DNA from: Thermodesulfobacteriota bacterium
GTDB taxonomy: Bacteria > Desulfobacterota_D > UBA1144 > Nemesobacterales > UBA2774
NCBI GenBank assembly: GCA_041753155.1
Contig: JBGSVA010000041.1
Coordinates: forward strand, 7,583-71,582
Direction of reading: 5' to 3'
DNA length: 64,000 nt
The notes under the pieces were generated by a model. That model was not told the DNA's origin and made no database searches. It saw nothing but the letters and a program-made list of their open reading frames with translations. The translations under genes and the position numbers were made by a program. Below, piece by piece: positions 25,015 to 48,945 of this stretch; the stretch's first letter is position 1, and every line of letters starts with the position of its first letter.

Positions 25015-25122
25015 GACAACTCCCGCTCCGAAGCCTGTTCTGAACCCCGGCGTCTATAATCTACCAGATAAGGGGCGGATATACCAGATTACCGACCCCC
25101 CGCGCAGCACTGCATATCCCGT

Positions 25123-25599
25123 CTATTCCTGGAGCACTAAACTGTCCCTTATCATGAAGAAATAATCCCTGAGCGCTTCTTCCTGCTCCAAGGTGACTAC
25201 GTGAAATGGCCTTTTCATCTTTACGACGTCGAGAGCCGTACCGGGGTCTATCCTCATATGATGCATAAGAAAGCATGCGAGCATTAAATTAGTCCTCCCC
25301 ATCCCCGCATAACAATGAACTGCCACACGCCTTCTTTCGGCGAGCCGGTCATTGACGAAATCCACGAATTCCCTGAAATCCTCGAACCCGGGGGCCTGGA
25401 AGTCGTTGACAGGTATGTGCTTCACTATAAAGCCTTCGTATTCCCTGGCATACTCTTGTTCCTCGAGGTTCACTATTACGCTGATCCCCTCCCTTCTCAG
25501 GAACTCGAGGTCGTCCTCAAAGCTGTTGAACTGCCCCGGCCTTTCCATACCCGCAATCACACCCTCGACTACCCAGGAGAACCTTTCAGGCACTGTCAC
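25123..25599 (-). CDS. Dual-specificity (Cys-based) protein phosphatase
   Basis: HCYAGMGRT is the CX5R P-loop. The start overlaps the nfi stop (ATGA). Confidence 0.75.
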   Translation of the reverse strand: MTVPERFSWVVEGVIAGMERPGQFNSFEDDLEFLRREGISVIVNLEEQEYAREYEGFIVKHIPVNDFQAPGFEDFREFVDFVNDRLAERRRVAVHCYAGMGRTNLMLACFLMHHMRIDPGTALDVVKMKRPFHVVTLEQEEALRDYFFMIRDSLVLQE

Positions 25600-26288
25600 G
25601 ATCTCCTTTTCTTAAGCTCGGTAACGTATATATCGGCCCGTCTGGTCGGCTCGGGTATCCTGTATCCCCTCGCGCACAGAAGGGCGATCTCCCTCGCCGA
25701 GTCCGTATCGAGCCTGTGGCCCGGAGAAACGAAGACGGGCTTCGTATTATCCCTCGTCCTCAGGACCGAGCCAATCACGCCCCCCTCCTTCGACATCAAA
25801 GGGCTGGAGGAACCCCTTTTCTCCCCCGGCGCGTCGTAATTGCCGTAAAGCCTCTTTTTTGCGATCCCCATGGCGGGAATATCCAGTAATACCCCCACGT
25901 GGCATGCGATACCGAAGCCCCTCGGATGCGCTATCCCCTGGCCGTCAATAATAAGGAGGTCGGGCCTCTGTCCCAGTTTTTTGAACGTCTCTATAATAGC
26001 CGGCCCTTCTCTGAAGGCGAGTAAACCGGGTATGTAGGGGAACCTTTCGTCGCTCACGGTATAAACCCGCTCGATCTCGGCGAGGTCGGGGTATGAAAAC
26101 AATATAATCCCGCATATGAGTTTATTCTCGCTCGTGAGAATCGAAAGATCGGCCCCCGCGACCGTCTTCAACTCTCCGAACTGCCTCTCTCTTATAACTA
26201 TTTTGCTTAATTCTCTCTGGACGTCGAAGGCGCGGGCGGGCCGAGTGCGGGCCTCCCCGGTAAAGGTCTTCGAGCAGGCCGGCGTCAA
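25596..26288 (-). CDS. nfi: Endonuclease V (deoxyinosine 3' endonuclease)
   Basis: Nfi-like sequence (VAGADLS ... YIPGLLAFREGP ... LIIDGQGIAHPRGFG). Confidence 0.8.
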   Translation of the reverse strand: MTPACSKTFTGEARTRPARAFDVQRELSKIVIRERQFGELKTVAGADLSILTSENKLICGIILFSYPDLAEIERVYTVSDERFPYIPGLLAFREGPAIIETFKKLGQRPDLLIIDGQGIAHPRGFGIACHVGVLLDIPAMGIAKKRLYGNYDAPGEKRGSSSPLMSKEGGVIGSVLRTRDNTKPVFVSPGHRLDTDSAREIALLCARGYRIPEPTRRADIYVTELKKRRS

Positions 26289-26545
26289 TGATACCCATAG
26301 ACATCCCCTATTACCCTCTTGAACCTGGGGGCGTAAATAAGCTCGAAGGCGAGCTCTTTCCCCGGAAAGAGCCTGAGCGCAAAACTCCTGACTTTTTCAA
26401 AATGCTCGAGAGCCTCCTCCCTCGTCAAATTTGTCTGATACATGAGGGATATGGTGAGGTCGACCATCAGGCGGAGGAGTCTCAGCTTCCTGTTTTCTTC
26501 GGCTATTTCTTCGGGTTTGGGAATCTGCTTTTCCATGGTAAACAC
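26285..26545 (-). CDS. Hypothetical small protein (86 aa) translationally coupled to nfi
   Basis: ATGA stop/start overlap with nfi. No recognisable motif. Confidence 0.4.
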   Translation of the reverse strand: MFTMEKQIPKPEEIAEENRKLRLLRLMVDLTISLMYQTNLTREEALEHFEKVRSFALRLFPGKELAFELIYAPRFKRVIGDVYGYH

Positions 26546-26699
26546 CGCCTGAGGATTATCGATTGACTATAGAAGTATACATGAAGCGCTCCGACGGATT
26601 AACTTATTTTCTATGCCTTCCGAAGCGCCTGTATTTGTCCGTGACAATAAAATTCGGTAGAATCAAACGGCATCAACTAAAACCTTCAGGATATATGAA

Positions 26700-27650
26700 A
26701 TGAAGCTCAGAATGGCTTTCGTCATGGACCCGGTAGGGGACATAAATACGGAAAAGGACACGACCTACGTCCTCATGCTCGAAGCCCAGGCGAGGGGGCA
26801 CGAGGTCTATTACCTGGAGCTTAAAGACCTCTACGTAAAAAATGCGAAGGCGTACGGTAACGCCGCCCGGATAAGCCTTAAGAGGGGCGCCGACTACTAT
26901 AAGCTCGGTGGGGGCGAAACGGTCGAGATGGAGACATTCGATGCGGTGTGGATGAGGAAGGACCCGCCGTTCAACCAGGACTACATATACGCGACTTATA
27001 TACTGAGCCTCATAGACCCGGGTAAAACGAAGGTGATAAACGACCCGAGGGGTATAAGGGAGTCGAACGAGAAGCTCTACACGCTCTATTTCCCCGAATG
27101 GATACCGAGCTCGGTAGTGACCAAGGATATCGGGCAGCTGAGTAAATTCCTGACCGAGGCGGGTGGGGAAATCGTCGTGAAGCCGCTCGACGGTCACGGG
27201 GGCGAAGGGGTCTTCTACGTCCGGGAGGGCGACAGGAACTCGAACGTGATACTCGAGACCATTACCAATTTTGGAAAACAGTACGTGCTGGCTCAAAAAT
27301 TTATTAAAGAAGTGAGCGAGGGCGACAAGAGGATAATACTCTTAAACGGAGAGCCGCTCGGAGCGGTGCTGAGGGTGCCGAAGCCGGGCGGAGAATTCAG
27401 GTGCAACTTCCATTCGGGGGGGAGCCCGGCCAAATCGGAGCTCACCGGGAGGGATCTGAAAATCTGCAAAGCCCTCTCCCGGAGGCTCAGGAAGGACGGC
27501 CTCTATTTTGTAGGCATAGACGTCATCGGGGGATATATAACGGAGATTAATACGACGAGCCCCACGGGTGTGCAGGAGATAAACAGGCTCAACGGAGTGA
27601 AGCTCGAAGAGGACGTAATCGATTTCGCAGAAGGTCTATGCTCGCGTTGA
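26700..27650 (+). CDS. gshB: Glutathione synthetase (ATP-grasp)
   Basis: MKLRMAFVMDP... N-terminus and an ATP-grasp C-terminus are typical of GshB. Confidence 0.8.
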   Translation: MKLRMAFVMDPVGDINTEKDTTYVLMLEAQARGHEVYYLELKDLYVKNAKAYGNAARISLKRGADYYKLGGGETVEMETFDAVWMRKDPPFNQDYIYATYILSLIDPGKTKVINDPRGIRESNEKLYTLYFPEWIPSSVVTKDIGQLSKFLTEAGGEIVVKPLDGHGGEGVFYVREGDRNSNVILETITNFGKQYVLAQKFIKEVSEGDKRIILLNGEPLGAVLRVPKPGGEFRCNFHSGGSPAKSELTGRDLKICKALSRRLRKDGLYFVGIDVIGGYITEINTTSPTGVQEINRLNGVKLEEDVIDFAEGLCSR

Positions 27651-27708
27651 GTCTTTGATTATTCCCCGCCGCATACCGATGCCGGGACAGAATTATCGGG
27701 AGGATCGA

Positions 27709-27999
27709 ATGAAAATCACTAGAGACGACGTCATTAAGGTTGCGGAGCTGGCAAGGCTCGAATTCAAAGAGGATGAGCTCGATAAATTCACGGAGCAGCT
27801 CGGAAATATTCTTACATACATCGGAAAGCTGAACGAGCTCGACACAAAAGACGTCGAACCAACGTCCCACGTGCTCGACCTCGCAACGCCCCTCAGGGAA
27901 GACGCGGTAGAGGAATGGCTCACCGCAGGAGAAGCGCTCGAGAACGCGCCCGAAGAGGAAGACGGGTTCTTTGTCGTCCCGCAGGTAATAGAAGACTAA
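27709..27999 (+). CDS. gatC: Asp-tRNA(Asn)/Glu-tRNA(Gln) amidotransferase subunit C
   Basis: MKITRDDVIKVAELARLEFKEDEL is the GatC signature. It lies directly upstream of gatA. Confidence 0.85.
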   Translation: MKITRDDVIKVAELARLEFKEDELDKFTEQLGNILTYIGKLNELDTKDVEPTSHVLDLATPLREDAVEEWLTAGEALENAPEEEDGFFVVPQVIED

Positions 28000-28011
28000 G
28001 GAGAGATTTGA

Positions 28012-29472
28012 ATGGAACTCCCGTTTTTATCGATAGGGGAAGCCTCCAGGCTTATAAGGAATAAAGAGATTTCCCCGAAGGAGCTTACCGAGTCGGTCCT
28101 CGATAGAATCTCGAAGCTCGACGGAAAGCTCAATTCCTATATCACAGTCATGGGCGAGAAGGCGATTGATGCGGCGAGGACGGCGGAAGAGGAAATCTCA
28201 TCGGGCTCATACCGCGGCCCCCTTCACGGCATACCAATCGGACTTAAAGACATATTCGTCATGAAGGGCGTCCCCGCTACGTGCGGGTCGAAGATGCTCG
28301 AGAACTTCTTTCCACCCTACGATGCCACGGTAACGAAAAAACTCCGGGACGCCGGCGCGGTTATTGTCGGCAAGAATAACATGGACGAGTTCGCAATGGG
28401 CTCGTCGACCGAGACCTCCTACTTCGGCCCGTCGAAGAATCCCTGGGACGTAGAGAGAGTGCCCGGAGGCTCGAGCGGCGGGTCAGCGGCGGCTACTGCA
28501 GCCTCACTCTGCCTGGGGTCCGTAGGTACCGACACCGGGGGCTCTATAAGGCAGCCGGCCTCCTACTGCGGCGTCGTCGGAATGAAGCCTACCTACGGGC
28601 GCGTGAGCAGGTTCGGCATGATAGCGTTCGCGTCGTCGCTCGACCAGGCGGGCCCCATAACGAAGACAGTCGAGGATACAGCCCTGATCCTGAACGCTAT
28701 ATCGGGACACGACCCGAGGGACTCGACGTGCGTTAATACCCCGGCGCCTGATTTGACTCTGAGCCTGAAAGACAGCATAAAAGGCGTGAAAGTGGGGGTG
28801 CCCGGGGAGTACTTCATTCCCGGCATGGACAGAGAGGTGGAAGAGGCCGCGAAAAAGGCGATCGCGCTCGTCGAAGACCTCGGCGGCGAGATAATCGACA
28901 TATCCCTCCCGCATACGGAATACGCGGTCCTGACTTACTACATAATCGCCCCTTCCGAGGCGAGCTCGAACCTCGCACGATACGACGGCGTGAAGTACGG
29001 CTTCCGGGCGGGCGGCGCCGGGACGCTCCGGGACATGTACTTGAAGACCAGGGCCGAAGGGTTCGGGAACGAGGTCAAGAGGAGGATAATGCTCGGAACC
29101 TATGCCCTGTCCGCGGGCTACTACGACGCCTATTACCTGAAGGCCCAGAGGGTGAGGACCCTCATAAAAAGGGACTTCGACGAGGCTTTCAAAAAGGTAG
29201 ATGTGATCATGGCTCCTACTGCACCGGAGGTCGCGTTCAGGTTCGGCGAAAAAACTGGCGACCCGATAAAGATGTACTTGTCCGACGTCCTGACAATACC
29301 GTGCAACATCGCGGGGCTCCCGGGGATATCCGTCCCCTGTGGATTTTCCGGGGACGGGCTCCCGATCGGGATTCAGGTGCTGGGTAAACCTTTCGACGAA
29401 GGCTCGGTTATCCATGTCGCCCACGCGTATGAACAGCACGCCGGATGGAAAGAAAGAAGGCCTCCCCTCTGA
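28012..29472 (+). CDS. gatA: Glutamyl-tRNA(Gln) amidotransferase subunit A (amidase signature)
   Basis: Amidase signature [10 protein letters not shown]. The catalytic Ser-cisSer-Lys context is present. Confidence 0.9.
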
Positions 29473-29548
29473 TGTTCGTGATAAATCTCGTATAGACTTA
29501 TTGCCGTATGCGTCATCTTAAGCGGAGTTTATAAATCAGGAGAACGAA

Positions 29549-29737
29549 ATGGCCGAGAAGAAAAAGGTATGCATGATATGCGGGAAGCCGTCCGATTCGT
29601 CTATCTGTGATGAGTGCAAGGCGAAGATTCAGGGAGAAGCGGCGGGGGAGAAGCAGAAAATAGAGAAGCAGGTGAAAGTCGGCTCTGAAGTGGAGAAAGA
29701 CAAGATAGTGAAGAAGCATATAGATAAGAAAGAGTGA
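29549..29737 (+). CDS. Small zinc-ribbon protein (CxxC...CxxC) with a Lys/Glu-rich tail
   Basis: AGGAGA RBS. CMICGK...CDEC motif. Confidence 0.5.
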   Translation: MAEKKKVCMICGKPSDSSICDECKAKIQGEAAGEKQKIEKQVKVGSEVEKDKIVKKHIDKKE

Positions 29738-30087
29738 ACGAGCCAACGCTGAACGTGATTCAGGGTTCAGGATGACTGAAATTATTGAGTGAAATGTAAC
29801 ACCCCCATCCTGACCTAATTTGGTTTAAGCAGCCTTGAGCCAGAAGTTAAGTTGCTTCGGCACCTTTGTTGGTAAGGCGACCTGTTGCTCATTTATTCGC
29901 AACAGTTCCCCCGCCTCGGGGGAAGGAATTAAAAGCTCAAAAAGATAAATTTCTCGTTTTGGTTTGTGCAGATCATATACGATGTCAATGCGAGTTATTT
30001 GCAATCAGCAAAGAGCGACCAATTCTTACGCTCGCTCAGAACTGTTGCTCGAAATGACAAAGAAAAGGCAAATATAGGCAACTATTA

Positions 30088-30247
30088 TTTCTTCTTTTCC
30101 TTGATGAAAAGAAGCAAAAATCATCCGACTGTACATAATTTGCTAAAAATCTTATGTTGAAGCTAAAATCTTTCAATTGGAAAGCTGAAAGATTTTCACG
30201 CTTCAACACGCGATTTTCTTAACGCAAATTCTGTAATGTCGGGAAAT
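30088..30247. repeat. Copy C of the structured intergenic repeat family. It is preceded (29935-30087) by head/tail fragments of the same family.
   Basis: Near-identical to copy A's core. The upstream flank shares aaaagataaatttctcg and gctcgaaatgaca...aagaaaaggcaa with the other copies. Confidence 0.8.
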
Positions 30248-30366
30248 ATAAATCCCACAGAATCCCAGCCTCGAATTACTTGACATCTACCGCAATGACA
30301 TATAAAAAGTAAATCCTCTCTCCCGAGATCGAGCCGTTATACTGTTCCCGCAGTTTGTATATTAAT

Positions 30367-31206
30367 TTACCGCTGGTCCCAGATTACGAGAGCACGCTTG
30401 TAAGTCTTACTCTTCGAATATCCGGATTCCCCGGAAACTTTTTTGACAGCATCTTTAAGACTGAGCCCGCTTTTTTTATAGGAGATGAGAAGCTCGTCTA
30501 TGCTTTCTTCAGTAGCTTCACCGCTTTCAGCCGAAGCTCCCTCGACCACTATCGTTACCTCGCCCTTTATCTTATCCCGCTTTCCGAGCGTTTCGAGCAC
30601 ATCCGAGACCTTGCCCCTCAAAGTCTCCTCATACAGCTTCGTCATCTCGCGGCTGACGGAAATATTACGGTCTCCGAGGACTTCGGAAATTGCATCGAGC
30701 GACTTCGTGACCCTGTTGGGGGATTCATAAAACACGAGCGTTTCCGGATAATTTTTTATACGCGAGAGATAGTCGGTCAAGTGCTTCCTCGTCCTCGGCA
30801 GGAAGCCGAAGAAAGCGAAGCTTGAAGTGGGCAGCCCCGACACGCTCAATGCCGATACGGATGCCGATGGTCCCGGTATCGACAGCACCTCGATACCGTG
30901 CCCGGACGCGAGTTTGACGAGCCTGTATCCTGGGTCCGAAATGCACGGGGTTCCGGCGTCCGAGACGAGCGCGACGCTCCTTCCCTCCCGCAGGAGCGAG
31001 AGGAGCTCTTTTGACTTCTCGATCTCGTTATGCTCGTGGTAGCTGACGAGGGGTGTTTCGATCGCGTAGCGGGAAAGGAGCTTTCTCGTGGTCCTCGTAT
31101 CCTCGCAGGCGACGACGTCCGCTTCTTTCAATATCTTGAGCGCCCGAAGTGTTATGTCTTCGAGGTTTCCTATGGGGGTTGAAACGATATAAAGCCTTCC
31201 GCTCAT
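30367..31206 (-). CDS. rsmI: 16S rRNA (cytidine1402-2'-O)-methyltransferase
   Basis: GRLYIVSTPIGNLEDITLRAL...EDTR is the RsmI signature. Confidence 0.85.
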   Translation of the reverse strand: MSGRLYIVSTPIGNLEDITLRALKILKEADVVACEDTRTTRKLLSRYAIETPLVSYHEHNEIEKSKELLSLLREGRSVALVSDAGTPCISDPGYRLVKLASGHGIEVLSIPGPSASVSALSVSGLPTSSFAFFGFLPRTRKHLTDYLSRIKNYPETLVFYESPNRVTKSLDAISEVLGDRNISVSREMTKLYEETLRGKVSDVLETLGKRDKIKGEVTIVVEGASAESGEATEESIDELLISYKKSGLSLKDAVKKVSGESGYSKSKTYKRALVIWDQR

Positions 31207-31315
31207 CTGATCCGAGAACAAGCCGTTAACGGGAAATCAATAATTCCAATTACGCTATATAGTGCGTCAACCCTTTATACGCGCCGGGAAATTTATCAGG
31301 TTGATTACGGCAGCG

Positions 31316-31804
31316 TTAATCCACGTTACATCTCTGATGAGACTCGTAGTTGATACATTTATCCTGATCCTTCCCGCCGTCGATGCTGTCGGTGCCCATT
31401 CCTCCATCGAGGAAGTCCTCACCGTCGTTCCCTTCGAGGTAATCATCTCCGTCACCGCCGTATACGACATCGTCGCCCTTACCACCCCTCAGGTCGTCGT
31501 TCCCGGCGTCTCCGTATATTATATCCTCTCCCGCCCCGCCGGTAATCGTATCTGCGCCGTCGCCGCCGCAAATTACGTCGTCCCCGTCGAGACCCTTTAT
31601 CTGGTCGTTCCCTCCGAGCCCTACTATTACGTCAGGTCCGAGCGACCCGTTCAGGGTATCGTTCCCGTTCGTTCCCACGATTGTCGGCGTTTTACCCTGG
31701 CATGTAGGCGGAGGCTGCGGCGCCGGGCTAGGCGCGGCGTATGAATTTAAAGCAAAAAGCGACATTGCGACTAAAGCGGAAATGCTCAATAATATCCTTT
31801 CCAT
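31316..31804 (-). CDS. Small secreted calcium-binding protein with RTX-like GGxGxD nonapeptide repeats
   Basis: Signal peptide. Tandem GGNDQIKGLDGDDVICGGDGADTITGGAGED repeats. Confidence 0.7.
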   Translation of the reverse strand: MERILLSISALVAMSLFALNSYAAPSPAPQPPPTCQGKTPTIVGTNGNDTLNGSLGPDVIVGLGGNDQIKGLDGDDVICGGDGADTITGGAGEDIIYGDAGNDDLRGGKGDDVVYGGDGDDYLEGNDGEDFLDGGMGTDSIDGGKDQDKCINYESHQRCNVD

Positions 31805-31939
31805 ATCATTCCTCCTTAACGTATGTATGTAATCTCAATTTAACTATTTCGACCGAAGAAAGTCAAGCCGTGTATTGCGGTTATGACTAAGATTAAAATA
31901 CCTACGTTACCTGGCCGGACAGGCGGCTCTTTATGCCGG

Positions 31940-32055
31940 AGGGCGGGGGATTCGAACCCCCAAGTCCTTGCGGACGCAGGTTTTCAAGACCTATACCGCG
32001 CACGTTCTTAAGTCTCCAGAATTGTTGATATATTTTTAATTCCCTTTAACATACG
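31940..32055 (-). repeat. tRNA-Ser(UGA) 3'-half fragment (31940-31997) plus a conserved ~55-bp arm. This is copy T1 of a direct-repeat family.
   Basis: The minus strand reads GGTCTTGAAAACC..variable arm..GGGGGTTCGAATCCCCCGCCCTCCGGCA. No 5' half can be folded. Confidence 0.7.
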
Positions 32056-32118
32056 ATTACCAAAACAACCCCTGACACAAGTCCTGGTTTGTACATATAT
32101 TCACACATGCTCTTCCGA

Positions 32119-34353
32119 TCAGCGAGTAAAACGCCTTTGTCCGCAATAAGTTATAAAAGCGGAAATGACCAGCAGCGAAAGTCCCGCCAGGGAAATTAGA
32201 ACACCCGGAATCAAGCCATAGGGAATGTAACGGAGCTCTAACTGCCCCAATCCGGGACCTACACGGATGCCCATCAGAACCCCGTCCGCGACTTCCGGTG
32301 TAAACCATCCGCCGGGGCCGTGCCCGAATCTTACTCTCCAACCCCTGTCCCAAGTCTCCGCTACGACCAATGTCTTTTCCCGAGGTGTATCCCACGAAAT
32401 ACGCCAGTAGCCCGGCAGCCGCTCGTCAACTCTAAGCCCAATCTCCAGGTCTTCATCCGTATCGCCGGTCTCAAGCCATCGTACAACCGGCAGTCCATCA
32501 ACTAACCGGTATATAGAAGCATCCTCTCCATCATATACCTTTTTCAATCCTTCTACAGGAGCTCCATACCCGGGAGGGGTCAATATCCACCTCACCCCCA
32601 GTTTTCGAATCATCGGGGAGTTCCAGTCCGCTACCGGACTAAAATAGACCGGATTGTATCCGGCTGAGAATGCAGAATATGCCCTTTCATACCTCTCAAG
32701 CTTCACCACGTTATCGCCCCGAATATCATAGAGTCCGTATACCATGGCGGCGTTAGGATGGAGCGCCCCCCCTACCCCGGCGACGCGGCCGGGCTTATCC
32801 CGGAGGAACTCAATCGCCGGGGTGACGGGATAGAGCTCGTTCAGGGACAATCCCGGATTGATATTGCCGTGAGCGGCCAGGAGATCGAGAACCAGGATCA
32901 CCGGAATGGCAGGCCATATGTATTTTCTATAGGCGGGCTTGAAGAACAGAGTAAATGAAAAAATAGTAGCCGATCCGAGGACCCAGATTGTCCAATATAC
33001 CTGAGTATCGACGGTCCCCCTTTGTTCCCAAAGTTCGATAAAACCGAACCAGGTCACCGCGATCAATACCGCGACCGCCGCCGTCCCGATCAACATGGTT
33101 TTACCCGAGCCCTCTATCCAGCGGTTAAATCCGTATCCCGCAAGCAGAGCGAGCGAAAGTCCAATGGCAAACCTGAGTCGATGATAGATCACTTTCCCGA
33201 AGACGGGAATATCCTTGATCAGATCGAATTCAAGCGGCAGGATATACACAGCGAGGAAAGAAATTATCAGAATAGCCGATACCGCAAGCCACCTCCGGTC
33301 TTTCCAAAAATCACTCAGCCCTGCAGAAGCCAGCAATAGCGTTAATACGCCCGCATACACCGTCGTTCCGATATAATTGAATGGCCCCCACCAGGTGCCC
33401 GAAGCCGGGTTCCCCGTCATCTCGGGGAGGACAATCCTCAGAGGCTGAACCAATATCTCAATCCATTCAATGGCAGCACCCTTACCGCTGCCCTCATAAA
33501 GCCACTTACTGCTTTCGAATAAGGTAAATAGAAAAGGCAGGGTCACGACAGCCGAGAGCGCCGCAGCCACAATCCAGCCGAAGGCAAAACCTGCCCACGA
33601 CCGCAGCAAATCTTGCGAACCCCTGACAAGCAAATATAGAGTAGATATCATCGCCGTGAGGATCACTGTCTCGGGATGTCCGGCTAAAAGCTCGAGCCCC
33701 GCGGTCACGCTCAACATCCGCCAGCCGCCTTTTCCGTTCGCAATCCGCTCTACAGACCAGAGGACCCAGGGAACGAGCGCAAAGGCGTTCGACATGGGAA
33801 CCAAAAGCCATGCGACGGGTAAGCCCGAGAGCGGGTAAATGAGACAGGCTACGAGAGAGCCGCGCTGTCCCAATCCAAGCTCTCTCGCAAGATACCACAC
33901 GCCGAGGCCCGCTATCACGAACCTGAGCCACGGCAGCAAAACGAACGACAATTGAAGGGGCAACACCACGAACAACAGATGTAAAGGGAATAAAGGAGCA
34001 CCGGAGCCGTTACTCCAGTAAGGGGTTCCCGAGAACTGATGAGGATCCCAGAACGGAAGCCTCCCCTGCCTCATCTCGTGACGGAGAAACAAGAGCCACG
34101 GCTGAACCTGATGAGTCACGTCCCGCAGGTGGGGGTTACCCTTCCCTGCATCCGCAACACCTTCCCAGGGTGCGAATTGCGCCATTGTCGCAGCGGGGCT
34201 CGGAATTCCGTCGGGGATAGTGAGTGCAGGCATCAATAGCGCTGCTCCCGAGATTCCCAAAGCGAAAAATGCGATCCCAAAACCCCTTCTTTTATATATC
34301 AATCCGATGCAGCTGAGGGCAAGGAGAAGCGGTAAGATCGGGTTAATGTTCAA
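32119..34353 (-). CDS. Large polytopic membrane protein, YfhO/GT-C-like (putative membrane glycosyltransferase)
   Basis: About 20 TM helices with large periplasmic loops. The size and topology fit the YfhO family. Confidence 0.5.
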   Translation of the reverse strand: MNINPILPLLLALSCIGLIYKRRGFGIAFFALGISGAALLMPALTIPDGIPSPAATMAQFAPWEGVADAGKGNPHLRDVTHQVQPWLLFLRHEMRQGRLPFWDPHQFSGTPYWSNGSGAPLFPLHLLFVVLPLQLSFVLLPWLRFVIAGLGVWYLARELGLGQRGSLVACLIYPLSGLPVAWLLVPMSNAFALVPWVLWSVERIANGKGGWRMLSVTAGLELLAGHPETVILTAMISTLYLLVRGSQDLLRSWAGFAFGWIVAAALSAVVTLPFLFTLFESSKWLYEGSGKGAAIEWIEILVQPLRIVLPEMTGNPASGTWWGPFNYIGTTVYAGVLTLLLASAGLSDFWKDRRWLAVSAILIISFLAVYILPLEFDLIKDIPVFGKVIYHRLRFAIGLSLALLAGYGFNRWIEGSGKTMLIGTAAVAVLIAVTWFGFIELWEQRGTVDTQVYWTIWVLGSATIFSFTLFFKPAYRKYIWPAIPVILVLDLLAAHGNINPGLSLNELYPVTPAIEFLRDKPGRVAGVGGALHPNAAMVYGLYDIRGDNVVKLERYERAYSAFSAGYNPVYFSPVADWNSPMIRKLGVRWILTPPGYGAPVEGLKKVYDGEDASIYRLVDGLPVVRWLETGDTDEDLEIGLRVDERLPGYWRISWDTPREKTLVVAETWDRGWRVRFGHGPGGWFTPEVADGVLMGIRVGPGLGQLELRYIPYGLIPGVLISLAGLSLLVISAFITYCGQRRFTR

Positions 34354-34512
34354 CTAGACATGACCGTGAGAGCCGACATTCCATACGATCGATATACGCC
34401 GGACCTCACATATTAATAATTGGAATAATTTCTAATTTACACCATCGATCGGAGAAAAACCAGCCTGCCCGCTTTACTGTTATCGAGGAGCTTGTAAAGT
34501 TATACATTACAC

Positions 34513-35271
34513 ATGAAAAATGAGCTGGTCAGACTCCAGGAAACGCTCTATAACTCCAGGAACCCCACAAGACGCTGGCTCCACCGAACACGCAAGGACT
34601 GGATAGTTCACAAACTCAGACGATTTGCCGGCGAGGAGGGAAAAGGAAAAGTCCTCGAAGTCGGGATAGGCTCCGGAATTTACCTTCCTGTGCTAGCCGA
34701 GTTATTTGAGAATGTAGTTGCGATCGACATAGAGGATTCCTATATCGATAACGCAATGACCATGACAAAGGATTTGACCAACGTATCCATAATCAAGGAC
34801 GATATTACCGAAACCGGACTGGTTGAGAAGAGCTTCGATCTTGTCCTGTGCTCGGAAGTAATCGAGCATATATATGATTCGAACAAAGCGTTTGCTGGGA
34901 TGCAGAGGCTCCTCAAAAACGGATGTCCGCTGATATTGTCGACCCCGCAGCCGTGGAGTCCGCTGGAGCTTCTTTCCAGAATCGCATTCCTGCCGGGTGT
35001 TATAGATATTGTGAGATATATATACAAAGAGCCTATTCTGAAAACGGGGCATATCAATCTGATGACGGAAAAAGAGATTACAAGGCAGCTCGCAGAAAAC
35101 CGTTTTCGTATACGGGAACGTCATAAATCAGGCTTATATCTCCCGTTGATAGCCGAGTTTGCCGGGGAAACGGGCCTGAGACTCGAGAAATGGGTGGAAT
35201 CCCGTATCCGCAAACAACCCCTCGATTGGGCCCTATGGACGCAATACTACGTCGCCGAGCCTGAGTCCTGA
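34513..35271 (+). CDS. Class I SAM-dependent methyltransferase
   Basis: VLEVGIGSGIY...DIED (motifs I/II). Confidence 0.7.
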   Translation: MKNELVRLQETLYNSRNPTRRWLHRTRKDWIVHKLRRFAGEEGKGKVLEVGIGSGIYLPVLAELFENVVAIDIEDSYIDNAMTMTKDLTNVSIIKDDITETGLVEKSFDLVLCSEVIEHIYDSNKAFAGMQRLLKNGCPLILSTPQPWSPLELLSRIAFLPGVIDIVRYIYKEPILKTGHINLMTEKEITRQLAENRFRIRERHKSGLYLPLIAEFAGETGLRLEKWVESRIRKQPLDWALWTQYYVAEPES

Positions 35272-35286
35272 GATTCGTACCGGTTT

Positions 35287-36075
35287 CTAAAATTCAGATG
35301 ACGGAGAACGGCGGACGTATTTCCCAGACCTCAACCTGCTTCTTATCGCCGCTAAATCGGCGAGAGCCTTCACCGTCCCCTTTATAACGCTCACATTACT
35401 CTCCGGGTAATGCTTCCAGGTAATAGGCACCTCTTTCACCTCATATCCCAACTCTCTTGCAATCACCAGGAGCTCCACATCGAAAATCCAGCCCGGGATC
35501 GTTTGCAGGGGAAAAACGTTATCGGCTGAAGACCCCGTAAATATTTTGAAGCCCGCCTGAGTGTCCTTAAATGGAAGGCCGGCAAACAGCTTAACGAAGT
35601 ATATAAACACCTTCCCCATGCTCTCCCTGATCCACGGCTGGCGAGAGGTTATATTGGCGCCCTCTACGCCCCTCGAACCGATAATTATGTCGTATCCCTG
35701 GTCGAAATAGGGCATCATATGACGTATCTCTTCTATCGAGGTGGAATTGTCCGCGTCCATAAATAGCCGGCAGGTCCCCCGCGCCTTGAGCATCCCTTCC
35801 TTCACCGCCGTCCCCTTACCCCTGTTCTCGGGCAGGGTGATCAGCACGAGCTCCGGCATCGCGTCCATCAGGGACGAGACGGTCTCGGCGGTTTTATCCA
35901 TAGACCCGTCGTCAACGACTATAACTTCATGCTTGAATTTCATGTCCGCAAAAAAATGATGAACGGAAAGCAGGGTCGATTCGATGATACTCTCTTCGTT
36001 ATAAGCAGGGATGATCACCGAAAGGATTATTTCATCGTCTATGGATCGATCCCTCACATGGGCGGGAATTAGCAT
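35287..36075 (-). CDS. Glycosyltransferase family 2 (polyprenol-phosphate sugar transferase-like)
   Basis: LSVIIPAYNEE...VVDDGSMD...MDADNS motifs. Confidence 0.75.
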   Translation of the reverse strand: MLIPAHVRDRSIDDEIILSVIIPAYNEESIIESTLLSVHHFFADMKFKHEVIVVDDGSMDKTAETVSSLMDAMPELVLITLPENRGKGTAVKEGMLKARGTCRLFMDADNSTSIEEIRHMMPYFDQGYDIIIGSRGVEGANITSRQPWIRESMGKVFIYFVKLFAGLPFKDTQAGFKIFTGSSADNVFPLQTIPGWIFDVELLVIARELGYEVKEVPITWKHYPESNVSVIKGTVKALADLAAIRSRLRSGKYVRRSPSSEF

Positions 36076-36346
36076 TCCTGTTATCCGCCTAAACCCGGAT
36101 TCACAGGTTTCATTCCGATTATCCTGCTGCTCCGATAAGCCGTGCTCCCGTCCGACATGAGAATAAAGATACAGTATTCTCTCACCCTCATAAAGTAGGT
36201 TGCAGGACTCGTCTGAGTCTATACTTATCAGATTTATAATTACAATTCCGGCTCTTGTAAACTTTCATCGGCTCTTTCGAAACTTCGGTAATAAGATATA
36301 ATGAAACTACAAAAACAGAACTTTTACTAAACATCCGTGAAGGAAA

Positions 36347-37216
36347 TTGAAAGGAATAATCCTCGCCGGGGGTTCCGGCAAAAGACTCTTTCCCCTGACC
36401 CGTGCCGTAAGTAAGCAGCTGCTGCCGGTATTCGACAAGCCGATGATTTATTATCCGCTCTCGCTTCTGATGCTCGCAGGCATAAGGGAGGTACTGATAA
36501 TTTCGAGCCCTCACGATCTCCCGAGATTCAGGGAGCTCCTGCGGGACGGCTCTCATCTAGGAATGTCCTTTTCGTACGCTCCCCAGACAGAGCCCCGGGG
36601 TCTTGCCGAAGCGTTTCTTATAGGCAGGGATTTCGTGGGATGCGATGCCGTATGTCTCGTTCTGGGGGATAATTTGTTTTACGGCCATGGGCTGAGGGAC
36701 CTGCTCAAAAAGAGCGCGGGTCCAGGTCAGGGCGGGATCGTTTTCGGTTATCCCGTCAGAGACCCCGGCCGATACGGGGTTCTGGAATTCGGCGGGAACG
36801 GCAGCGTTATCGGGATTGAGGAAAAGCCGACGAAACCCAAGTCAAGGTATGCGGTCACGGGAATCTATTTTTACGATAATAATGTTTTGGAAATAGCGTC
36901 CGGGCTCTCCCCTTCTCACCGCGGAGAGCTTGAGATAACGGACATCAACCGGGAATATTTAACGAACGGGAAACTGACCGTAGAGCTTTTGGGGAGGGGG
37001 TTTTCGTGGCTCGATATGGGTACATACGAGTCCCTTCAGCAGGCATCCCAATACGTTCAGACCATTCAGGAGCGTCAGGGACTCAAGATAGCGTGTATCG
37101 AAGAGATAGCGTACAGGGAAGGATTCATAGACAGGGCGCGCCTGCGGGAGCTGGCCCTCGAGATGTCCGGGAACGAGTACGGGGCGTATCTGGACGAAAT
37201 ACTGGACCAGGGATAA
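36347..37216 (+). CDS. rfbA: Glucose-1-phosphate thymidylyltransferase (TTG start)
   Basis: [18 protein letters not shown] is the RmlA signature. Confidence 0.9.
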
Positions 37217-37221
37217 CGGGT

Positions 37222-37782
37222 ATGGCGATAAGCGTAATAGAGACATCCCTTCAGGGGGTATTCGTGATCGAATCCGACGTCCATACCGACGACAGGGGCT
37301 TCTTCAAAGAGATATACCGCTACGATAAATACCTGTCAGCGGGACTGGGCATGAAGTTCGTTCAGGATAATCACTGCCACTCGAAAAGGGGTGTTTTGAG
37401 GGGACTCCACTATCAGCTCAATTCACCGCAGGGGAAGCTCGTTATGGCCGTGACGGGCGAGGTGTTCGACGTAGCGGTGGATATAAGGAAGGGGTCTCCC
37501 GGCTACGGCAGATGGACAGGCGTATATCTATCCCCTTTAAATAACAGGCAGGTATATATTCCCGAAGGGTATGCTCACGGATATTGCGTACTGAGCGAGA
37601 GTGCGGACGTTATCTACAAATGCACCTCATTATTCGACCCCGGCGACGAGTACGGAATATTATGGTCGGACCCCGACATAAACATTGAATGGCCCGTAGT
37701 CAATCCGGTTCTTTCAGTGAGGGACGCGGGTAACCCGGCGCTCGGGGAGATAAGCGACGACGATCTGCCCGTGTATATGTAA
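37222..37782 (+). CDS. rfbC: dTDP-4-dehydrorhamnose 3,5-epimerase
   Basis: RmlC cupin motifs (DDRGFF ... RGLHYQ). The ORF-track N-extension is out of context. Confidence 0.85.
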
Positions 37783-37829
37783 ATTACCGGATAGTCGATA
37801 AAAGTATCGGGGGCTCGCGGTCACGTAGA

Positions 37830-38882
37830 ATGGAAAATTTGCTAGTAACAGGCGGCGCAGGTTTTATAGGCGTCAACTTCATCAGGTATCTTCTCACGGA
37901 GACGGGCTTCAGGGGACGCGTTATCAACGTGGACAAGCTTACCTATGCCGGGAACCCTGAAAGTCTTGACGGAATCGATAAGCGTTTTTCGGACAGGTAT
38001 GAGTTTATCAAAGCGGACATCTGTGATAGAGAGAAGCTTGCGCGTGTATTCGACGAGCACGATGTGGATTCGGTGTGCCATTTCGCCGCCGAATCCCATG
38101 TGGACAGGTCGATAGTCAGCGCCGAGGATTTTATCAAAACGAATATCCTCGGCACATACAACCTATTAGAGCTCGCCAGAGAGCGTACGGATCGCATTCG
38201 TCTATTCCATCATATAAGCACCGATGAAGTGTTCGGGGACCTGGACGCCGGGGGTTATTCCGCCGAGGACGCTCCCTACAGACCAAACAGTCCCTACTCG
38301 GCGTCTAAAGCCTCATCCAACCACCTTGCCAGAGCCTATTATAAAACTTACGGGCTTCCGGTGACGATCTCGAACTGCTCTAACAATTATGGACCTTATC
38401 AGTTCCCCGAAAAGCTTATCCCGCTTATGATACTGAACGCACTCGAGGGCAAGCCTCTTCCCATTTACGGAGACGGTATGAATGTGAGAGATTGGTTATA
38501 TGTGCACGACCACTGTGCAGCCGTAAAGACAATTATGGATAAGGAAAGCGGGGGGGAAACGTATAACATAGGCGGAGGGAATGAAATAACAAATATCCGG
38601 GTTGTCGAGATGATTTGCGATATGCTGGATGAGATTTTAGGCCGTCTTCCCGACGGGAAGCCCCGGAGAGACCTCATCACGCTCGTTCCCGACCGACCCG
38701 GTCACGACAGACGTTATGCAATTGAATGGAGGAAGATAAACTCCGAGCTGGGCTGGAGACCGACCGAGAGTTTTGAAAGCGGCCTCCGGAAGACCGTCGA
38801 CTGGTATCTCACCAATAAGGCCTGGGTTGACAGGGTCAGAAGCAGCGAATACAGAAAGTGGATTGATGCGCATTACGGATAA
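37830..38882 (+). CDS. rfbB: dTDP-glucose 4,6-dehydratase
   Basis: Rossmann fold TGGAGFIG. Catalytic YxxxK (YSASKAS). Confidence 0.9.
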
Positions 38883-38954
38883 TTAACCGGAGCGCATTAA
38901 CAGCACTCCCCGTTCTCCTTTGTCTTTCCATATATAGACCTGTGCTGAACCATG

Positions 38955-38973
38955 TCCTGAATTTATTTCAGGA
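38955..38973 (+). terminator. Candidate hairpin (7-bp stem tcctgaa/ttcagga) followed by a T-rich tract after rfbB
   Basis: The inverted repeat is read directly. The stem is AT-rich and therefore weak. Confidence 0.25.
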
Positions 38974-39042
38974 TTGATTTGGTATTCAGGACGCAGGGCG
39001 AAGGGGTTTTCTTGTCGCGGCTGGTAGCTGCCTCAATATCAC

Positions 39043-40146
39043 CTAGCGGTAAAAACTTAAGCTTTCTAACTCCTGTCCCTCACCATCTACAATACGGAAA
39101 TTATATGTGCCCGGTTCCATGTTCATCCAGATATCCCTCGGAAAGCGCCATGATTTAGTTCCGCCGTCGCAAATCCTGACCGCTGCCGCAGGAATACCAA
39201 GATCATTATTCGAAATCTCGACCCATAACGGCAAGCTGCGTATCATTCCCATAGAACTGAACTCGAGAGTAGGAACGCCACACCACGGAAACGAACGCCC
39301 ATGAGCCCCCAAACCACAGTGAAATGCCAGCCGTCTCATCAGCGGGATTAGATATGAAATAAAAGTATCGAAGACTATCCCGTAGTAGCGTTTCCTGAAC
39401 ATACGGCCCGATTCCTCGAACCACTTTTTCGCCCTGGGCTCTTTTACCGCACTCCGGTTATATGCGTGCACAACTTGAGCGTCCGGCACATAGTAAGATT
39501 TCAGTCCGTTTTTCTCAAGCCTCCTGAGCCAGTCCGCCTCTTCATAATATAGCTTGTAGGCCTCGTCGAACGGCCCGACTCTGTTCCAGGTGTCCCTCCT
39601 CACAGCCAGGAGGGCGCCGCTTAAGGAGTAGCTCTCAAAGGCATCTCCGGCTTCCCAATGCCTCCTCGCGTGCACCCTCCATATACTCCTCACCCACCTG
39701 GCCCAGTCTTCCCCGAGCGCAGATGTCCTCCATATCAATTCGTTCCGCCTCTTAAGCTCCATGAGAGGCGGGAGCAGTATTATGCGTTCCGGGTCGAGAA
39801 AAAACTTCGGGCCTGCCGCGGGAGCACCTTTACAGAGCACCGACACGAGGGCGCCTAATGACCCAGGCATCACTTGAACGTCGGGGTTCATAAATATCAT
39901 GATATCAGCATTTGTGGCGCCGGCACCCAAATTGATACCCCCTGCATAGCCGAGGTTCACCCCCGGATCGAGGAGCCTTGCCGGGAGGGATCCGATAAGT
40001 CCCTTATCACGGTCGCCGCTCCCGTTATCTACTATTATTATCTCCCCTTCTATCCCGCTCGATCGCATATCGGAGCGGATTGCCTCTACAGCTTTCCGCA
40101 GCAGGTCGGGGGTGTGGTAATGAACGAGTATTAGAGCCACTTTCAT
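39043..40146 (-). CDS. Glycosyltransferase family 2
   Basis: ILVHYHTPDLL...IIVDNGSGD... motifs. Confidence 0.7.
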   Translation of the reverse strand: MKVALILVHYHTPDLLRKAVEAIRSDMRSSGIEGEIIIVDNGSGDRDKGLIGSLPARLLDPGVNLGYAGGINLGAGATNADIMIFMNPDVQVMPGSLGALVSVLCKGAPAAGPKFFLDPERIILLPPLMELKRRNELIWRTSALGEDWARWVRSIWRVHARRHWEAGDAFESYSLSGALLAVRRDTWNRVGPFDEAYKLYYEEADWLRRLEKNGLKSYYVPDAQVVHAYNRSAVKEPRAKKWFEESGRMFRKRYYGIVFDTFISYLIPLMRRLAFHCGLGAHGRSFPWCGVPTLEFSSMGMIRSLPLWVEISNNDLGIPAAAVRICDGGTKSWRFPRDIWMNMEPGTYNFRIVDGEGQELESLSFYR

Positions 40147-40213
40147 ATTAGAATTAACCTGTTTGTAAAAGGCCGCATATCATATATATGCGGCGGAATA
40201 CAGCCTGGCCGGG

Positions 40214-41218: not shown

Positions 41219-41249
41219 GGTCTACTCACTATTAAATTCATATTGTCAG

Positions 41250-48942: not shown

Positions 48943-48945
48943 GGA

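Follow-up and report, generated by a model that had tools for sequence, protein, structure and literature searches.

The DNA analysed here, a stretch of 64 kb referred to as the window, passes from ordinary chromosome into a row of accessory gene blocks whose limits fall on copies of one repeat unit, each unit holding part of a tRNA-Ser(UGA) gene. All genes in the first 28 kb are housekeeping genes, and Pfam detected no recombinase among them. The related loci used for comparison, labelled L0xx, are MAGs or metagenome loci of uncultured Thermodesulfobacteriota. The features of the window are as follows, T1 to T4 being the repeat units.

24491..31933, no strand assigned: native chromosomal flank, 80-89% identical and syntenic to L016, L022, L051, L061 and L064, with the homology ending at T1
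27655-29472, plus strand: gatC/gatA, in the native flank (Pfam)
30367-31221, minus strand: rsmI, in the native flank (Pfam)
31316-31804, minus strand: RTX-repeat protein, in the native flank
31934..31991, minus strand: T1 core, displaced 3' 58 nt of tRNA-Ser(UGA), decayed (3 substitutions, GCA end)
31992..32149, minus strand: T1 arm, the element arm of the glycan block (repeat/profile search)
32150..51209, minus strand: glycan module, 19 kb, GC 0.49, without recombinase (Pfam)
51210..51267, minus strand: T2 core, 58/58 to the functional gene of relatives
51268..51424, minus strand: T2 arm, the element arm of the TetR module (repeat/profile search)
51425..53416, plus strand: TetR/hydrolase module, 2.0 kb, GC 0.40 (Pfam)
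51533/51569-52135, plus strand: TetR regulator, two candidate starts (Pfam)
52291-53319, plus strand: alpha/beta hydrolase (Pfam)
53417..53474, minus strand: T3 core, 58/58 identical
53475..53631, minus strand: T3 arm, the element arm of the bcs module, 80% identical to the T2 arm
53632..62877, minus strand: cellulose synthase (bcs) module, 9.2 kb, GC 0.47 (Pfam)
53745-56801, minus strand: bcsC (Pfam)
56798-57835, minus strand: bcsZ (Pfam)
57825-60068, minus strand: bcsB (Pfam)
60087-62357, minus strand: bcsA (Pfam)
62878..62948, minus strand: T4, remnant of a fourth unit, the distal ~70 nt of an arm, with proximal arm and core lost
62949..64000, plus strand: start of a further low-GC block, GC 0.42, with a PAS-GAF sensor gene from 63075 that runs off the window (Pfam)

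According to Pfam, the glycan module encodes a YfhO-like protein, methyltransferases, GT2 and GT1 glycosyltransferases, rmlA/C/B/D, a radical-SAM/SPASM protein, a 2OG-Fe(II) oxygenase, two sulfotransferases and a PIG-L/GT2 fusion. Native DNA has a GC content of 0.53, and the blocks that follow have, in order, 0.49, 0.40, 0.47 and 0.42. A unit lies at either end of the glycan module and of the TetR module, the bcs module has a unit at one end and a remnant at the other, and all three are without a recombinase. An earlier, sequence-only reading of this DNA had placed the three copies at the boundaries between chromosome and glycan block, glycan block and TetR cassette, and TetR cassette and bcs operon, and the gene content assigned by Pfam puts the limits of the blocks at exactly these places.

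The repeat unit is about 205 nt long and occurs in three direct copies on the minus strand, at 31934-32149 (T1), 51210-51424 (T2) and 53417-53631 (T3). It has a conserved non-tRNA arm of about 150 nt and behind it a core, the 58 nt at the 3' end of tRNA-Ser(UGA) that extend from the anticodon stem and loop to CCA; read on the minus strand, each copy runs from GGT-CTTGAAA-ACCGG... through the variable arm and GGGGGTTCGAATCCC to GCCCTCC-G-CCA. A 45-nt probe from the tRNA part has exactly three matches in the 64-kb window, all in one orientation (31947-31991, 51223-51267 and 53430-53474), and none is expected from shuffled sequence, which bears out the claim of three copies running in the same direction. 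A repeat search of the window groups 31934-32135, 51210-51411 and 53417-53618 into a 202-nt family, over which T3 is 87% and T1 61% identical to T2, and a search with a profile of the unit returned copies at 32149-31926, 51424-51197 and 53631-53406 together with the remnant T4 at 62948-62878. The same profile search, taken to E<=50, found no further copy in the window, degenerate ones inside the glycan block included, and degenerate extra units were rejected on this basis as the reason for the uneven GC of that block. Two positions have to be corrected: the copy T1 is real but its tRNA part begins at 31934 and not at 31940, and the remnant T4, also real, is not at 62917 following bcsA but spans 62878-62948, upstream of bcsA by transcription and on the tRNA-proximal side of the bcs block.

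The tRNA parts of T2 and T3 are identical at 58/58 positions to the intact tRNA-Ser(UGA) genes of related genomes, and that of T1 agrees at 55/58 and has GCA at its 3' end; these matches uphold the anatomy first proposed for the minus strand (anticodon stem and loop, variable arm, T arm, acceptor, CCA or GCA). The conservation of the abutting sequence among the copies, and the extra ~100 nt common to T2 and T3, were also confirmed. Despite both cores being 58/58, the arms of T2 and T3 are only 80% identical; within the window array the arms differ by 20-43%, and the closest arms to that of T3 are those of L064 and L016, at 89% identity. Every arm starts with the 19-mer TTTCTAAGCATTTTCTAAG, about 150 nt upstream of the core; the distal end of the T2 arm holds TTTCCAAGCATTTTCTAAGAACC, the T3 arm starts with TTTCTAAGCATTTTCTAAGAACC, and repeats of TTTCTAAG are present in the unit arm and of TTCTAAG in T4. 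The arms of T1 and T2 are mosaic, with an identical 31 nt beside the core and unrelated distal parts. In T1 the proximal 75 nt of the arm are conserved, and the diverged distal half overlaps the end of the YfhO-like ORF.

If the window is a short-read assembly, its joins across an exact repeat of 58 nt may be in error. Exact-protein look-ups with rmlD, bcsZ and the RTX-like gene gave Logan short-read contigs of 0.9-3.2 kb, and the contigs of three runs stop inside T1 or T2 (rmlD, L001, inside T2; the RTX-like gene, L080 and L081, inside T1), as is expected if the repeat is genuine. The bcsZ contig (L067) lies wholly inside the bcs operon, and the exact-protein look-up with bcsA returned no record. 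Arrangements similar to that of the window are present in other assemblies (L061, L022 and L074).

No intact tRNA was found in the window by ARAGORN or by Rfam at the gathering threshold. The 5' half had been described as missing in T1 and T2, which both programs bear out, and since neither calls a tRNA, T3, for which the 5' half had not been tried, is likewise without one. The best sub-threshold Rfam alignment over T3, to the tRNA-Sec model, reaches 26.3 bits against a cutoff of 47, with the acceptor, D and anticodon stems broken. Ahead of the anticodon loop, the unit has 29 nt that match a tRNA 5' half in length and resemble one faintly, and 5/7 acceptor pairs could form. A complete or unusual tRNA is ruled out by ARAGORN, Rfam and the broken stems, so the fragments do not fold as complete non-canonical tRNAs, an outcome that the sequence-only reading had named as contrary to its own view. 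The RNAalifold covariation term for the unit is -0.13, and RNAalifold found no conserved arm structure beyond a small hairpin inside the motif; a structured RNA in the arm was rejected, as there is no covariation. Across the 17 distinct family units compared, tRNA identity starts at the GGT of the anticodon stem in 13, and the rest read TAGGA or TAGGTT. A 42-nt pattern of the tRNA part occurs at 51 loci, which comprise 43 copies inside intact tRNA-Ser(UGA) genes, 6 fragments and 2 copies cut by a contig end. On a Hyphomicrobiales contig (L008/L011) two fragments lie 15.4 kb apart.

The native flank that ends at T1 is found in relatives directly downstream of tRNA-Ser(UGA). In L051, an intact tRNA-Ser(UGA) gene is parted from the RTX/rsmI/gatA genes, the same genes as after T1, only by a small unrelated cupin insert, and the blocks of the window are absent. 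In the MAG MFD10007.bin.1.169 (L015/L022) an intact tRNA is followed by a 0.9-kb cupin module, a unit, a 2-kb DUF1254/DUF1214 module, another unit and the native flank; the tRNA stands at the end of the array and points the same way as the fragments. L061 and L064 have a unit joined straight to the native flank TA[A/G]AGAGCCG[C/T]CTGTCCGGC, as T1 is, and in L016 this flank follows the right end of a cupin module, which parts the unit from it. The cupin module is 99.4% identical between two genomes with flanks at 80%. It was rejected as proof of unit-mediated mobility, its right end being a degenerate T-loop-to-CCA copy and not an arm-plus-core unit, and for this reason the cupin module is assigned to a different insertion type.

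The cargo at orthologous junctions changes from one genome to the next. At the T1-equivalent junction L016, L061 and L064 all have a unit, and the cargo behind it differs from the glycan block of the window, being a sigma-54 activator in L064 and a 314-aa gene between two units in L061. The glycan module is absent at this junction in relatives, and part of it is common to L074 at 91-94% identity. At the T3-equivalent position the window has bcs versus copper-resistance genes in L074, the glycan and TetR blocks being common to both. Close homologues of the hydrolase led to the orthologous TetR/hydrolase pair in L074-L077, where glycan and TetR are shared and bcs is not; among these homologous loci of the same cargo, the TetR module showed neither a circular nor an alternative junction. 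The units are 80-89% conserved across unrelated cargo in at least six genomes or metagenomes. Decay is visible in several, namely T1, T4 and the counterparts of T2 and T3 in L074; of these, the T2 counterpart is mostly deleted and retains, of its tRNA part, roughly the final 27 nt. L051 has at 4297-4349 a distal-only remnant resembling T4. The comparison of synteny that the sequence-only reading had proposed was therefore informative in its favour, with an intact tRNA-Ser(UGA) beside the native genes of T1 (L051, L015/L022) and differing cargo in L016, L061, L064 and L074.

The exact 42-nt tRNA-part pattern, the sole scan made by genome, found in MFD09730.bin.2.52 its tRNA and one unit only, and in MFD10007.bin.1.169 the tRNA and one unit, to which BLAST added a second. 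All units of these two MAGs lie at the tRNA-Ser locus and in tRNA orientation. The repeat, with 1-2 units in each of the two MAGs scanned, is thus not common at non-island sites there, and a tRNA-derived mobile repeat, which had been offered as the alternative to island integration, fails on the same evidence.

Across the ~51 main ORFs of the window no recombinase Pfam domain was detected (short and overlapping ORFs were not all scanned), tblastn with the integrase of L060 gave no match in the window, and the glycan, TetR and bcs blocks were found to have neither an integrase or excisionase nor the integrase-proximal arm motif. Together with the ARAGORN and Rfam results, this agrees with the earlier statement that the window contains neither an integrase nor an intact tRNA-Ser. 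The integrase is found in related loci. In L060/L068 a unit, preceded by an HTH_17 (excisionase-type) ORF, is followed after ~85 nt by a tyrosine integrase of 353 aa (Pfam Phage_integrase, E=5e-37) together with a type I R-M island. Relatives of the L060 integrase lie directly after the tRNA in L073 (79% identity), which has an intact tRNA-Ser(UGA), and in L072 (90%), a contig cut inside the 3' end of the tRNA; relatives of ~50% identity lie directly after tRNA-Arg genes. Moreover, the 19-mer that starts every arm is met again in L060, L072 and L073, where it stands some 80 nt beyond the core and immediately in front of the integrase ATG. Arm motif and core are common to the window units and the integrase-bearing elements, and no autonomous element was recovered with both ends. 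L053 and L063 keep half of the integrase-proximal motif, with the integrase gene absent, and this, together with modules devoid of conserved integrase-proximal sequence, points to loss of the integrase by deletion. With regard to a possible phage origin, a search of IMG/VR for the junction pattern gave 0 matches; the 19-mer matches two viral contigs, in which the stretches examined are without a unit or a related integrase.

We consider it quite likely that elements integrated site-specifically, time after time, into one tRNA-Ser(UGA) gene and that the units are the junctions which remain. The conserved sequence abutting the tRNA part is the arm of the incoming element, and each unit would be an attR-type junction in which this arm meets the displaced 3' part of the tRNA. 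It is the related genomes that suggest this, through the intact tRNA by the T1 flank, the varied cargo, the copper genes of L074, and the integrase with its 19-mer. Serial integration at a tRNA-Ser attB, as first proposed, is supported by the tRNA beside the T1 genes, the change of cargo, and the integrase in L073, L072 and L060.

In the mechanism that we propose, a tyrosine integrase, presumably bound to the arm, would recombine the element's site, made up of the ~150-nt arm and a tRNA copy from the anticodon loop to the 3' end, with the tRNA gene. Crossover would take place at the anticodon loop or immediately 3' to it; the tRNA would be completed by the element's copy, and the old 3' part would be displaced to the far end of the insert, beside the element's arm. 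The glycan block would have come first, T1 being its arm together with the original chromosomal 3' part, still touching the native flank; the TetR/hydrolase block (T2) would have been the second and the bcs block (T3) the third. At least one more block would have entered later, with T4 as what is left of its arm. The intact tRNA-Ser is expected beyond the 64 kb, on the minus strand; as this genome's intact tRNA-Ser(UGA) lies outside the window, we infer this anchor of the array from the relatives. Perfect cores in T2 and T3 next to arms of 80% identity are what is expected if each copy was once a working tRNA 3' half; by our own arithmetic, the probability of zero changes in 58 nt at 20% neutral divergence is ~2e-6. 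The blocks have no integrase or excisionase and are thus non-autonomous; they resemble cis-mobilizable elements and would either rely on an integrase from a related autonomous element or now be fixed. That these blocks have a single arm and no integrase-proximal motif or integrase of their own weighs against the mechanism. The mosaic arms, with the 31 nt shared by T1 and T2, are not predicted by simple serial integration with uniform decay. Since glycan and TetR blocks also lie side by side in another genome (L074), the two may have arrived or been inherited together, and not as two events in this lineage.

A bolder form of this view, possible but in our estimation rather unlikely, is that the ~205-nt arm-plus-core is a self-sufficient, portable attachment site by which integrase-less modules, whatever their content, could be mobilized in trans, making tRNA-Ser(UGA) in this Thermodesulfobacteriota lineage an open gene-capture platform. 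As part of the same conjecture, the platform would be integron- or SCC-like in function, but its site would derive from a tRNA and its enzyme, encoded elsewhere, would be a lambda-type tyrosine integrase. We find it more doubtful still that this should replace the reading of the array as decayed-island debris, with the unit as a portable recombination site and the array as an integron- or SCC-like cassette platform on which integrase-less modules of ~2-19 kb, each with one ~205-nt unit, circle out and re-insert at tRNA-Ser(UGA) by means of an integrase elsewhere. Such a platform would suit the conservation of units across unrelated cargo, the varying cargo at orthologous junctions, the perfect cores of T2 and T3, and the fact that 5/5 unit-bounded modules (the three of the window and one each from L022 and L061) are without a recombinase. 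However, neither circular junctions nor polymorphic empty sites were seen for the integrase-less modules, several units are decaying, the traces in L053/L063 suggest that integrases were deleted, and there is no fixed integrase beside the tRNA in L015, L045 and L051, where the upstream genes encode cupin, phytase-like and histidine-phosphatase proteins. Integrase-less modules are, moreover, already accounted for by the accretion/CIME model (PMC3146451). An integron cassette array in the strict sense was rejected: L015, L045 and L051 have no integrase gene upstream of the tRNA, the unit has no attC-like palindrome, and the modules are multigene operons or divergent genes needing their own promoters, in contrast to promoterless cassettes.

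There is very little to recommend a single integration, with the extra units arising by local duplication or unequal homologous recombination of one attR and the blocks arriving via unrelated routes. The 31-nt identity of T1 and T2 beside the core speaks for it, and the direct repeats are long enough for homologous recombination, but arms that differ by 20-43% beside identical cores are unlike a recent duplication, the block limits coincide exactly with units, arrays of other genomes hold different modules between such units, and the integrase-bearing island of L060 begins exactly at a unit. Least credible of all is a tRNA-derived dispersed repeat (MITE/SINE-like) or functional tRNA-like RNA gene independent of the tRNA-Ser locus, which would fit a compact, conserved unit with a faint tRNA likeness in its 29 nt, 5/7 acceptor pairs and tRNA-Sec score, but not its broken stems, its negative ARAGORN, Rfam and covariation results, its single orientation and restriction to the region downstream of the tRNA, its 1-2 copies per scanned MAG with no further copy in the window, or the absence of terminal inverted repeats and target duplications.

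If repeated integration at tRNA-Ser(UGA) is accepted, the bcs operon, the 19-kb surface-glycan cluster with its sulfotransferases and the TetR/hydrolase pair are accessory DNA gained at one hotspot and not ancestral traits of the lineage, and the three pseudo-tRNA fragments should be annotated as att junctions. The comparison also defines a tRNA-Ser(UGA)-specific integrase family, with its probable arm sites, in uncultured Thermodesulfobacteriota. Should mobilisation in trans prove true, unit and integrase might be used for site-specific insertion in these organisms, which are hard to manipulate.

Tandem island arrays are already known from the ssrA islands of Dehalococcoides, tycheposons and ICESt1/CIME, and the process itself is not new. 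In Dehalococcoides, about half of the tandem ssrA islands (15) have no integration module and were proposed to be cis-mobilizable (McMurdie et al. 2011, PMC3146451). Like the blocks of the window, they stand in tandem downstream of one essential small-RNA gene, have a direct repeat of the 3' end of that gene with extra conserved sequence beside it, and differ in gene content from strain to strain (PMC3146451). Their target, however, is tmRNA, with a 20-bp T-loop repeat and a serine recombinase (PMC3146451), in contrast to tRNA-Ser(UGA), a 58-nt repeat from the anticodon loop and an arm of ~150 nt in the window, with a tyrosine integrase in related loci only and none in the window. The tycheposons of Prochlorococcus integrate at tRNA genes, tRNA-Ser(UGA) included, with neighbours parted by a partial tRNA copy alone, old remnants and partial tRNAs scattered in the island, and niche-adaptive cargo (Hackl et al., 10.1101/2020.12.28.424599). 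They were found via their integrases and have replication modules in common (10.1101/2020.12.28.424599), whereas the modules of the window have neither integrase nor replication genes, and integrase family and host phylum differ.

Among the islands of Islander/TIGER, the anticodon-loop crossover class is the commonest (2083/3919 islands; Hudson et al. 2015, PMC4383910). An intact tDNA and a displaced 3' fragment in direct orientation mark the ends of such islands (PMC4383910; Williams 2002), and tandem arrays are recognised (PMC4383910). As for the features of a tDNA island, the window has real tRNA fragments and relatives with an uninterrupted site; an integrase of its own is not found in the window and is present in related elements of the same site (L060, L072 and L073). 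Islander requires each tandem member to have its own integrase, and arrays of at least three are rare there, with 4 cases (PMC4383910). The array of the window would fail this filter because its members have no integrase of their own; it is a clear case in which this holds for every member of a tandem array, and integrase-dependent finders such as Islander would miss such arrays.

The ICESt1/ICESt3 elements and CIMEs of Streptococcus thermophilus, as far as they are described in PMC3146451 (Pavlovic et al. 2004), differ in their site, the 3' end of the protein gene fda, and in that mobilisation was shown experimentally; the window has no autonomous partner within 64 kb. According to the same account, CIMEs are modules that have kept their att sites without integrase or transfer genes, that stand in tandem with, or were left by, an autonomous element of the same site, and that form arrays by accretion and deletion. 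The modules of the window, att-flanked and free of recombination and transfer genes, have this feature of CIMEs.

In this analysis, we show that a unit of ~205 nt is present in the window as three direct minus-strand copies (T1, T2 and T3). A 45-nt probe matched only 31947-31991, 51223-51267 and 53430-53474 in the window, with no matches expected from shuffled sequences. A profile of the unit revealed no copies in the window beyond T1-T3 and a remnant, T4, even at E ≤ 50. The units and the gene blocks that they separate are arranged as follows:

1-31.9 kb: housekeeping genes gatB, carA, oxidoreductase, endonuclease V, gshB, gatC/gatA, rsmI and a small RTX-repeat protein
31934-32135, 51210-51411 and 53417-53618, minus strand: repeat family (repeat search)
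32149-31926, 51424-51197 and 53631-53406, minus strand: unit copies (unit profile)
T1-T2: glycan cluster of 19 kb with YfhO-like, rmlABCD, glycosyltransferase, sulfotransferase and radical SAM genes
T2-T3: TetR regulator and alpha/beta hydrolase
T3-T4: bcsA-B-Z-C
62948-62878, minus strand: T4, 70-nt remnant (unit profile)
beyond T4: PAS-GAF gene

On the minus strand, the last 58 nt of the unit (the core) run from the anticodon-stem GGT to GCCCTCC-G-CCA and take in CTTGAAA (anticodon UGA), a long variable arm and the T arm. The core matches the 3' 58 nt of intact tRNA-Ser(UGA) at 58/58 positions in T2 and T3 and at 55/58 in T1. The sequence-only reading, which had described three direct minus-strand copies with a tRNA-Ser(UGA) 3' part, was thus correct by probe, repeat family and profile; its statement that T1 and T2 lack the 5' half is borne out and extends to T3, since neither ARAGORN nor Rfam found a tRNA in the window. 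In the best sub-threshold model alignment of T3, the acceptor, D and anticodon stems were broken and the score was 26.3 bits, where the cutoff is 47. A scan for the tRNA part (one genome per species) gave 51 loci, 43 of them inside an intact tRNA-Ser(UGA) gene, 6 fragments and 2 cut by a contig end, and the intact matches were found in Gemmatimonadota, Ignavibacteriota, Bacteroidota and Thermodesulfobacteriota MAGs. The fragment therefore derives from a real tRNA that is widely conserved. Between the arm and the anticodon loop, T1-T3 (31992-32020, 51268-51296 and 53475-53503, minus strand) and every related unit carry a 29-nt stretch (GGAAAGTTA.GAAT...TAGGT) of fixed length in 15/15 distinct units; it is faintly like a tRNA 5' half, with 5/7 acceptor pairs possible, and an entire tRNA gene, once captured, may be the ancestor of the element site. 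Independent Logan short-read contigs (SRR28170466, SRR28170468) end within the T1 or T2 core (31976, 51239), indicating that the repeat breaks short-read assemblies.

Synteny with related genomes was compared, and the claim that the copies lie at boundaries of accessory blocks is upheld. The gatA-rsmI-RTX region is about 89% identical to the window in L016 (MAG MFD09730.bin.2.52) and L064, and 80-86% in L022, L051, L028 and L061; in all these relatives homology ends at T1, beyond which empty, occupied and differently filled sites were found. L051 has an intact tRNA-Ser(UGA) beside this neighbourhood with only a small cupin insert between. In L061 and L064 a full unit is directly joined to the flank that follows T1, and in L016 the cupin module separates the unit from that flank. 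L015/L022, adjacent blocks of one contig, read intact tRNA, 0.9-kb cupin module, unit, 2-kb DUF1254/DUF1214 gene, unit and native flank, and L061 has a 1.7-kb single-gene module enclosed by two units. The cargo behind the T1-equivalent unit is glycan genes in the window, a sigma-54 activator in L064 and a 314-aa gene in L061. L074 (GCA_974762455.1) has distal glycan genes and the TetR/hydrolase pair in common with the window (86-94% identity), its T2 unit being deleted to about 27 nt, and its T3-equivalent unit is followed by copper-resistance genes in place of bcs. These sites and their differing cargo indicate that T1, T2 and T3 are true block boundaries. The window blocks are accessory DNA, and the older, tRNA-distal ones are shared more widely than the younger.

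GC content is 0.53 in the native DNA and 0.49, 0.40, 0.47 and 0.42 in the successive blocks, and a scan of the main ORFs throughout the window found no recombinase domain. Within the glycan block, GC is lowest (0.43-0.46) at 41250-45801 (minus strand), where two sulfotransferases, a radical-SAM/SPASM enzyme and a 2OG-Fe(II) oxygenase are encoded; this gene content suggests a modified, possibly sulfated, surface glycan. Given its uneven GC, this block may itself be composite; the unit profile found no unit remnant within it. A second intergenic repeat family of ~210 nt, unrelated to the unit (15455-15683, 20707-20911 and 30042-30246, plus strand; copies 75-97% identical; two perfect hairpins), has no match in Rfam and looks like a MITE/REP-like insertion or small RNA gene. 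Its gatA-rsmI copy sits in a ~650-nt stretch (29735-30387) absent from syntenic relatives.

Identity between unit and tRNA begins at the anticodon stem and loop, which is the signature of the anticodon-centred tDNA integration class, the commonest tDNA site class in Islander (PMC4383910, citing Williams 2002). At integration, the element's own copy of the 3' part would complete the tRNA, and the former 3' part would be pushed to the far end of the insert, beside the element's arm. By this displacement, each unit would combine the arm of its tRNA-proximal neighbour with the 3' part given by its tRNA-distal neighbour, that of T1 being the original chromosomal one. T2 and T3 have perfect cores but arms only 80% alike, presumably because each core once had to work in the tRNA. 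The order of arrival would be glycan, TetR/hydrolase, bcs and at least one more block. Units decay once displaced: T1 has three substitutions and a distal arm that has diverged, T4 retains nothing but distal arm, L051 has a remnant, and most of the L074 T2 unit is deleted. Such decay would lock blocks in place.

An integrase or integrase-proximal arm is absent from all five unit-bounded modules (window and relatives). An alternative to integrase loss by deletion is the accretion/CIME route, in which an autonomous element brings in a neighbour and departs later by itself (PMC3146451; its ref. 54). We consider it rather unlikely that a trans-acting cassette platform operates at tRNA-Ser(UGA). 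The arms are mosaic, identical near the core and distally diverged, in T1/T2 and L061/L064, a pattern not expected from uniform decay. Duplication of a single attR does not fit, because the arms are 20-43% different beside identical cores and T3 is nearer to the arms of L016 and L064 (89%) than to T2. A dispersed tRNA-derived repeat is excluded by copy number, single orientation and confinement to this locus in the window and the MAGs scanned, and a functional tRNA-like RNA by the negative model searches (ARAGORN, Rfam) and the lack of covariation.

A junction-specific pattern search found the unit on ten metagenome contigs. In L060/L068, the end of an HTH_17 (excisionase-type) ORF precedes the unit, and a 353-aa tyrosine integrase follows ~85 nt after it, then a type I restriction-modification island. 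Homologues of the L060 integrase are encoded directly after the tRNA in L073 (79%), which holds an intact tRNA-Ser(UGA), and in L072 (90% identity), which is cut within the tRNA's 3' end. Relatives ~50% identical lie directly after tRNA-Arg genes too, so that, taken together, these proteins form a family of island integrases that target tRNA genes. In most full-length units the arm opens with the 19-mer TTTCTAAGCATTTTCTAAG, ~150 nt upstream of the core; the T2, L030/L066 and L061 arms have variants of it. In L060, L072 and L073 the 19-mer recurs ~80 nt downstream of the core, where it follows a promoter-like TTGACT-17-TAAAAT and precedes the start codon of the integrase. We infer that these same-orientation repeats flanking the core are putative arm-type integrase binding sites. 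The arm is conserved in sequence with no RNA covariation, which fits protein-binding DNA. L053/L063 have no integrase gene but retain, at the correct spacing, one half of the proximal motif, suggesting loss of the gene by deletion in that case. IMG/VR contigs L078 (2380-2433) and L079 also carry the exact 19-mer, near tRNA-Gln and 18 nt beyond a reverse-complemented proximal-arm motif (GGAAAGTTAAGAAC); the stretch examined has no unit, tRNA-Ser part or related integrase.

Other insertions occur at the same tRNA. In two relatives, a tyrosine integrase C-terminal fragment just upstream of intact tRNA-Ser(UGA) (L073 360-600, L028 204-356) may have been left by a further element. The 0.8-kb cupin-gene module lies directly after the tRNA-Ser 3' end (L016 323-1146; L022 7308-8000 with L015 23-141; L051 3110-4913) and is 99.4% identical in two MAGs with flanks only 80% identical, indicating recent transfer. 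At its end lie a GC-rich hairpin and a degenerate copy of the T-loop-to-CCA part (GGTTCGGAT...CACCGCCA), so that it seemingly uses a different site on this tRNA (T-loop or 3' end). The L051 module is itself split by a distal-arm remnant together with DUF2975 and HTH genes. In other phyla, the same anticodon-loop site is found with unrelated arms, as an 8.9-kb island of tRNA, integrase and fragment (Gemmatimonadaceae, CAVTOB010000002.1; L012/L042) and as two identical-arm fragments 15.4 kb apart with an integrase between (Hyphomicrobiales bin, CAYXQJ010000047.1; L008/L011).

The anatomy of the array matches that of tandem island arrays already described: the Dehalococcoides ssrA islands, 15 of which have no integration module (PMC3146451), tycheposon arrays, with elements separated by partial tRNAs, Islander tandems and ICESt1/CIME accretion. 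The window differs from these in detail, namely in host lineage, in its target tRNA-Ser(UGA), in its long core (58 nt) beside a conserved arm of ~150 nt, and in an array built wholly of modules that lack an integrase and carry large functional operons.
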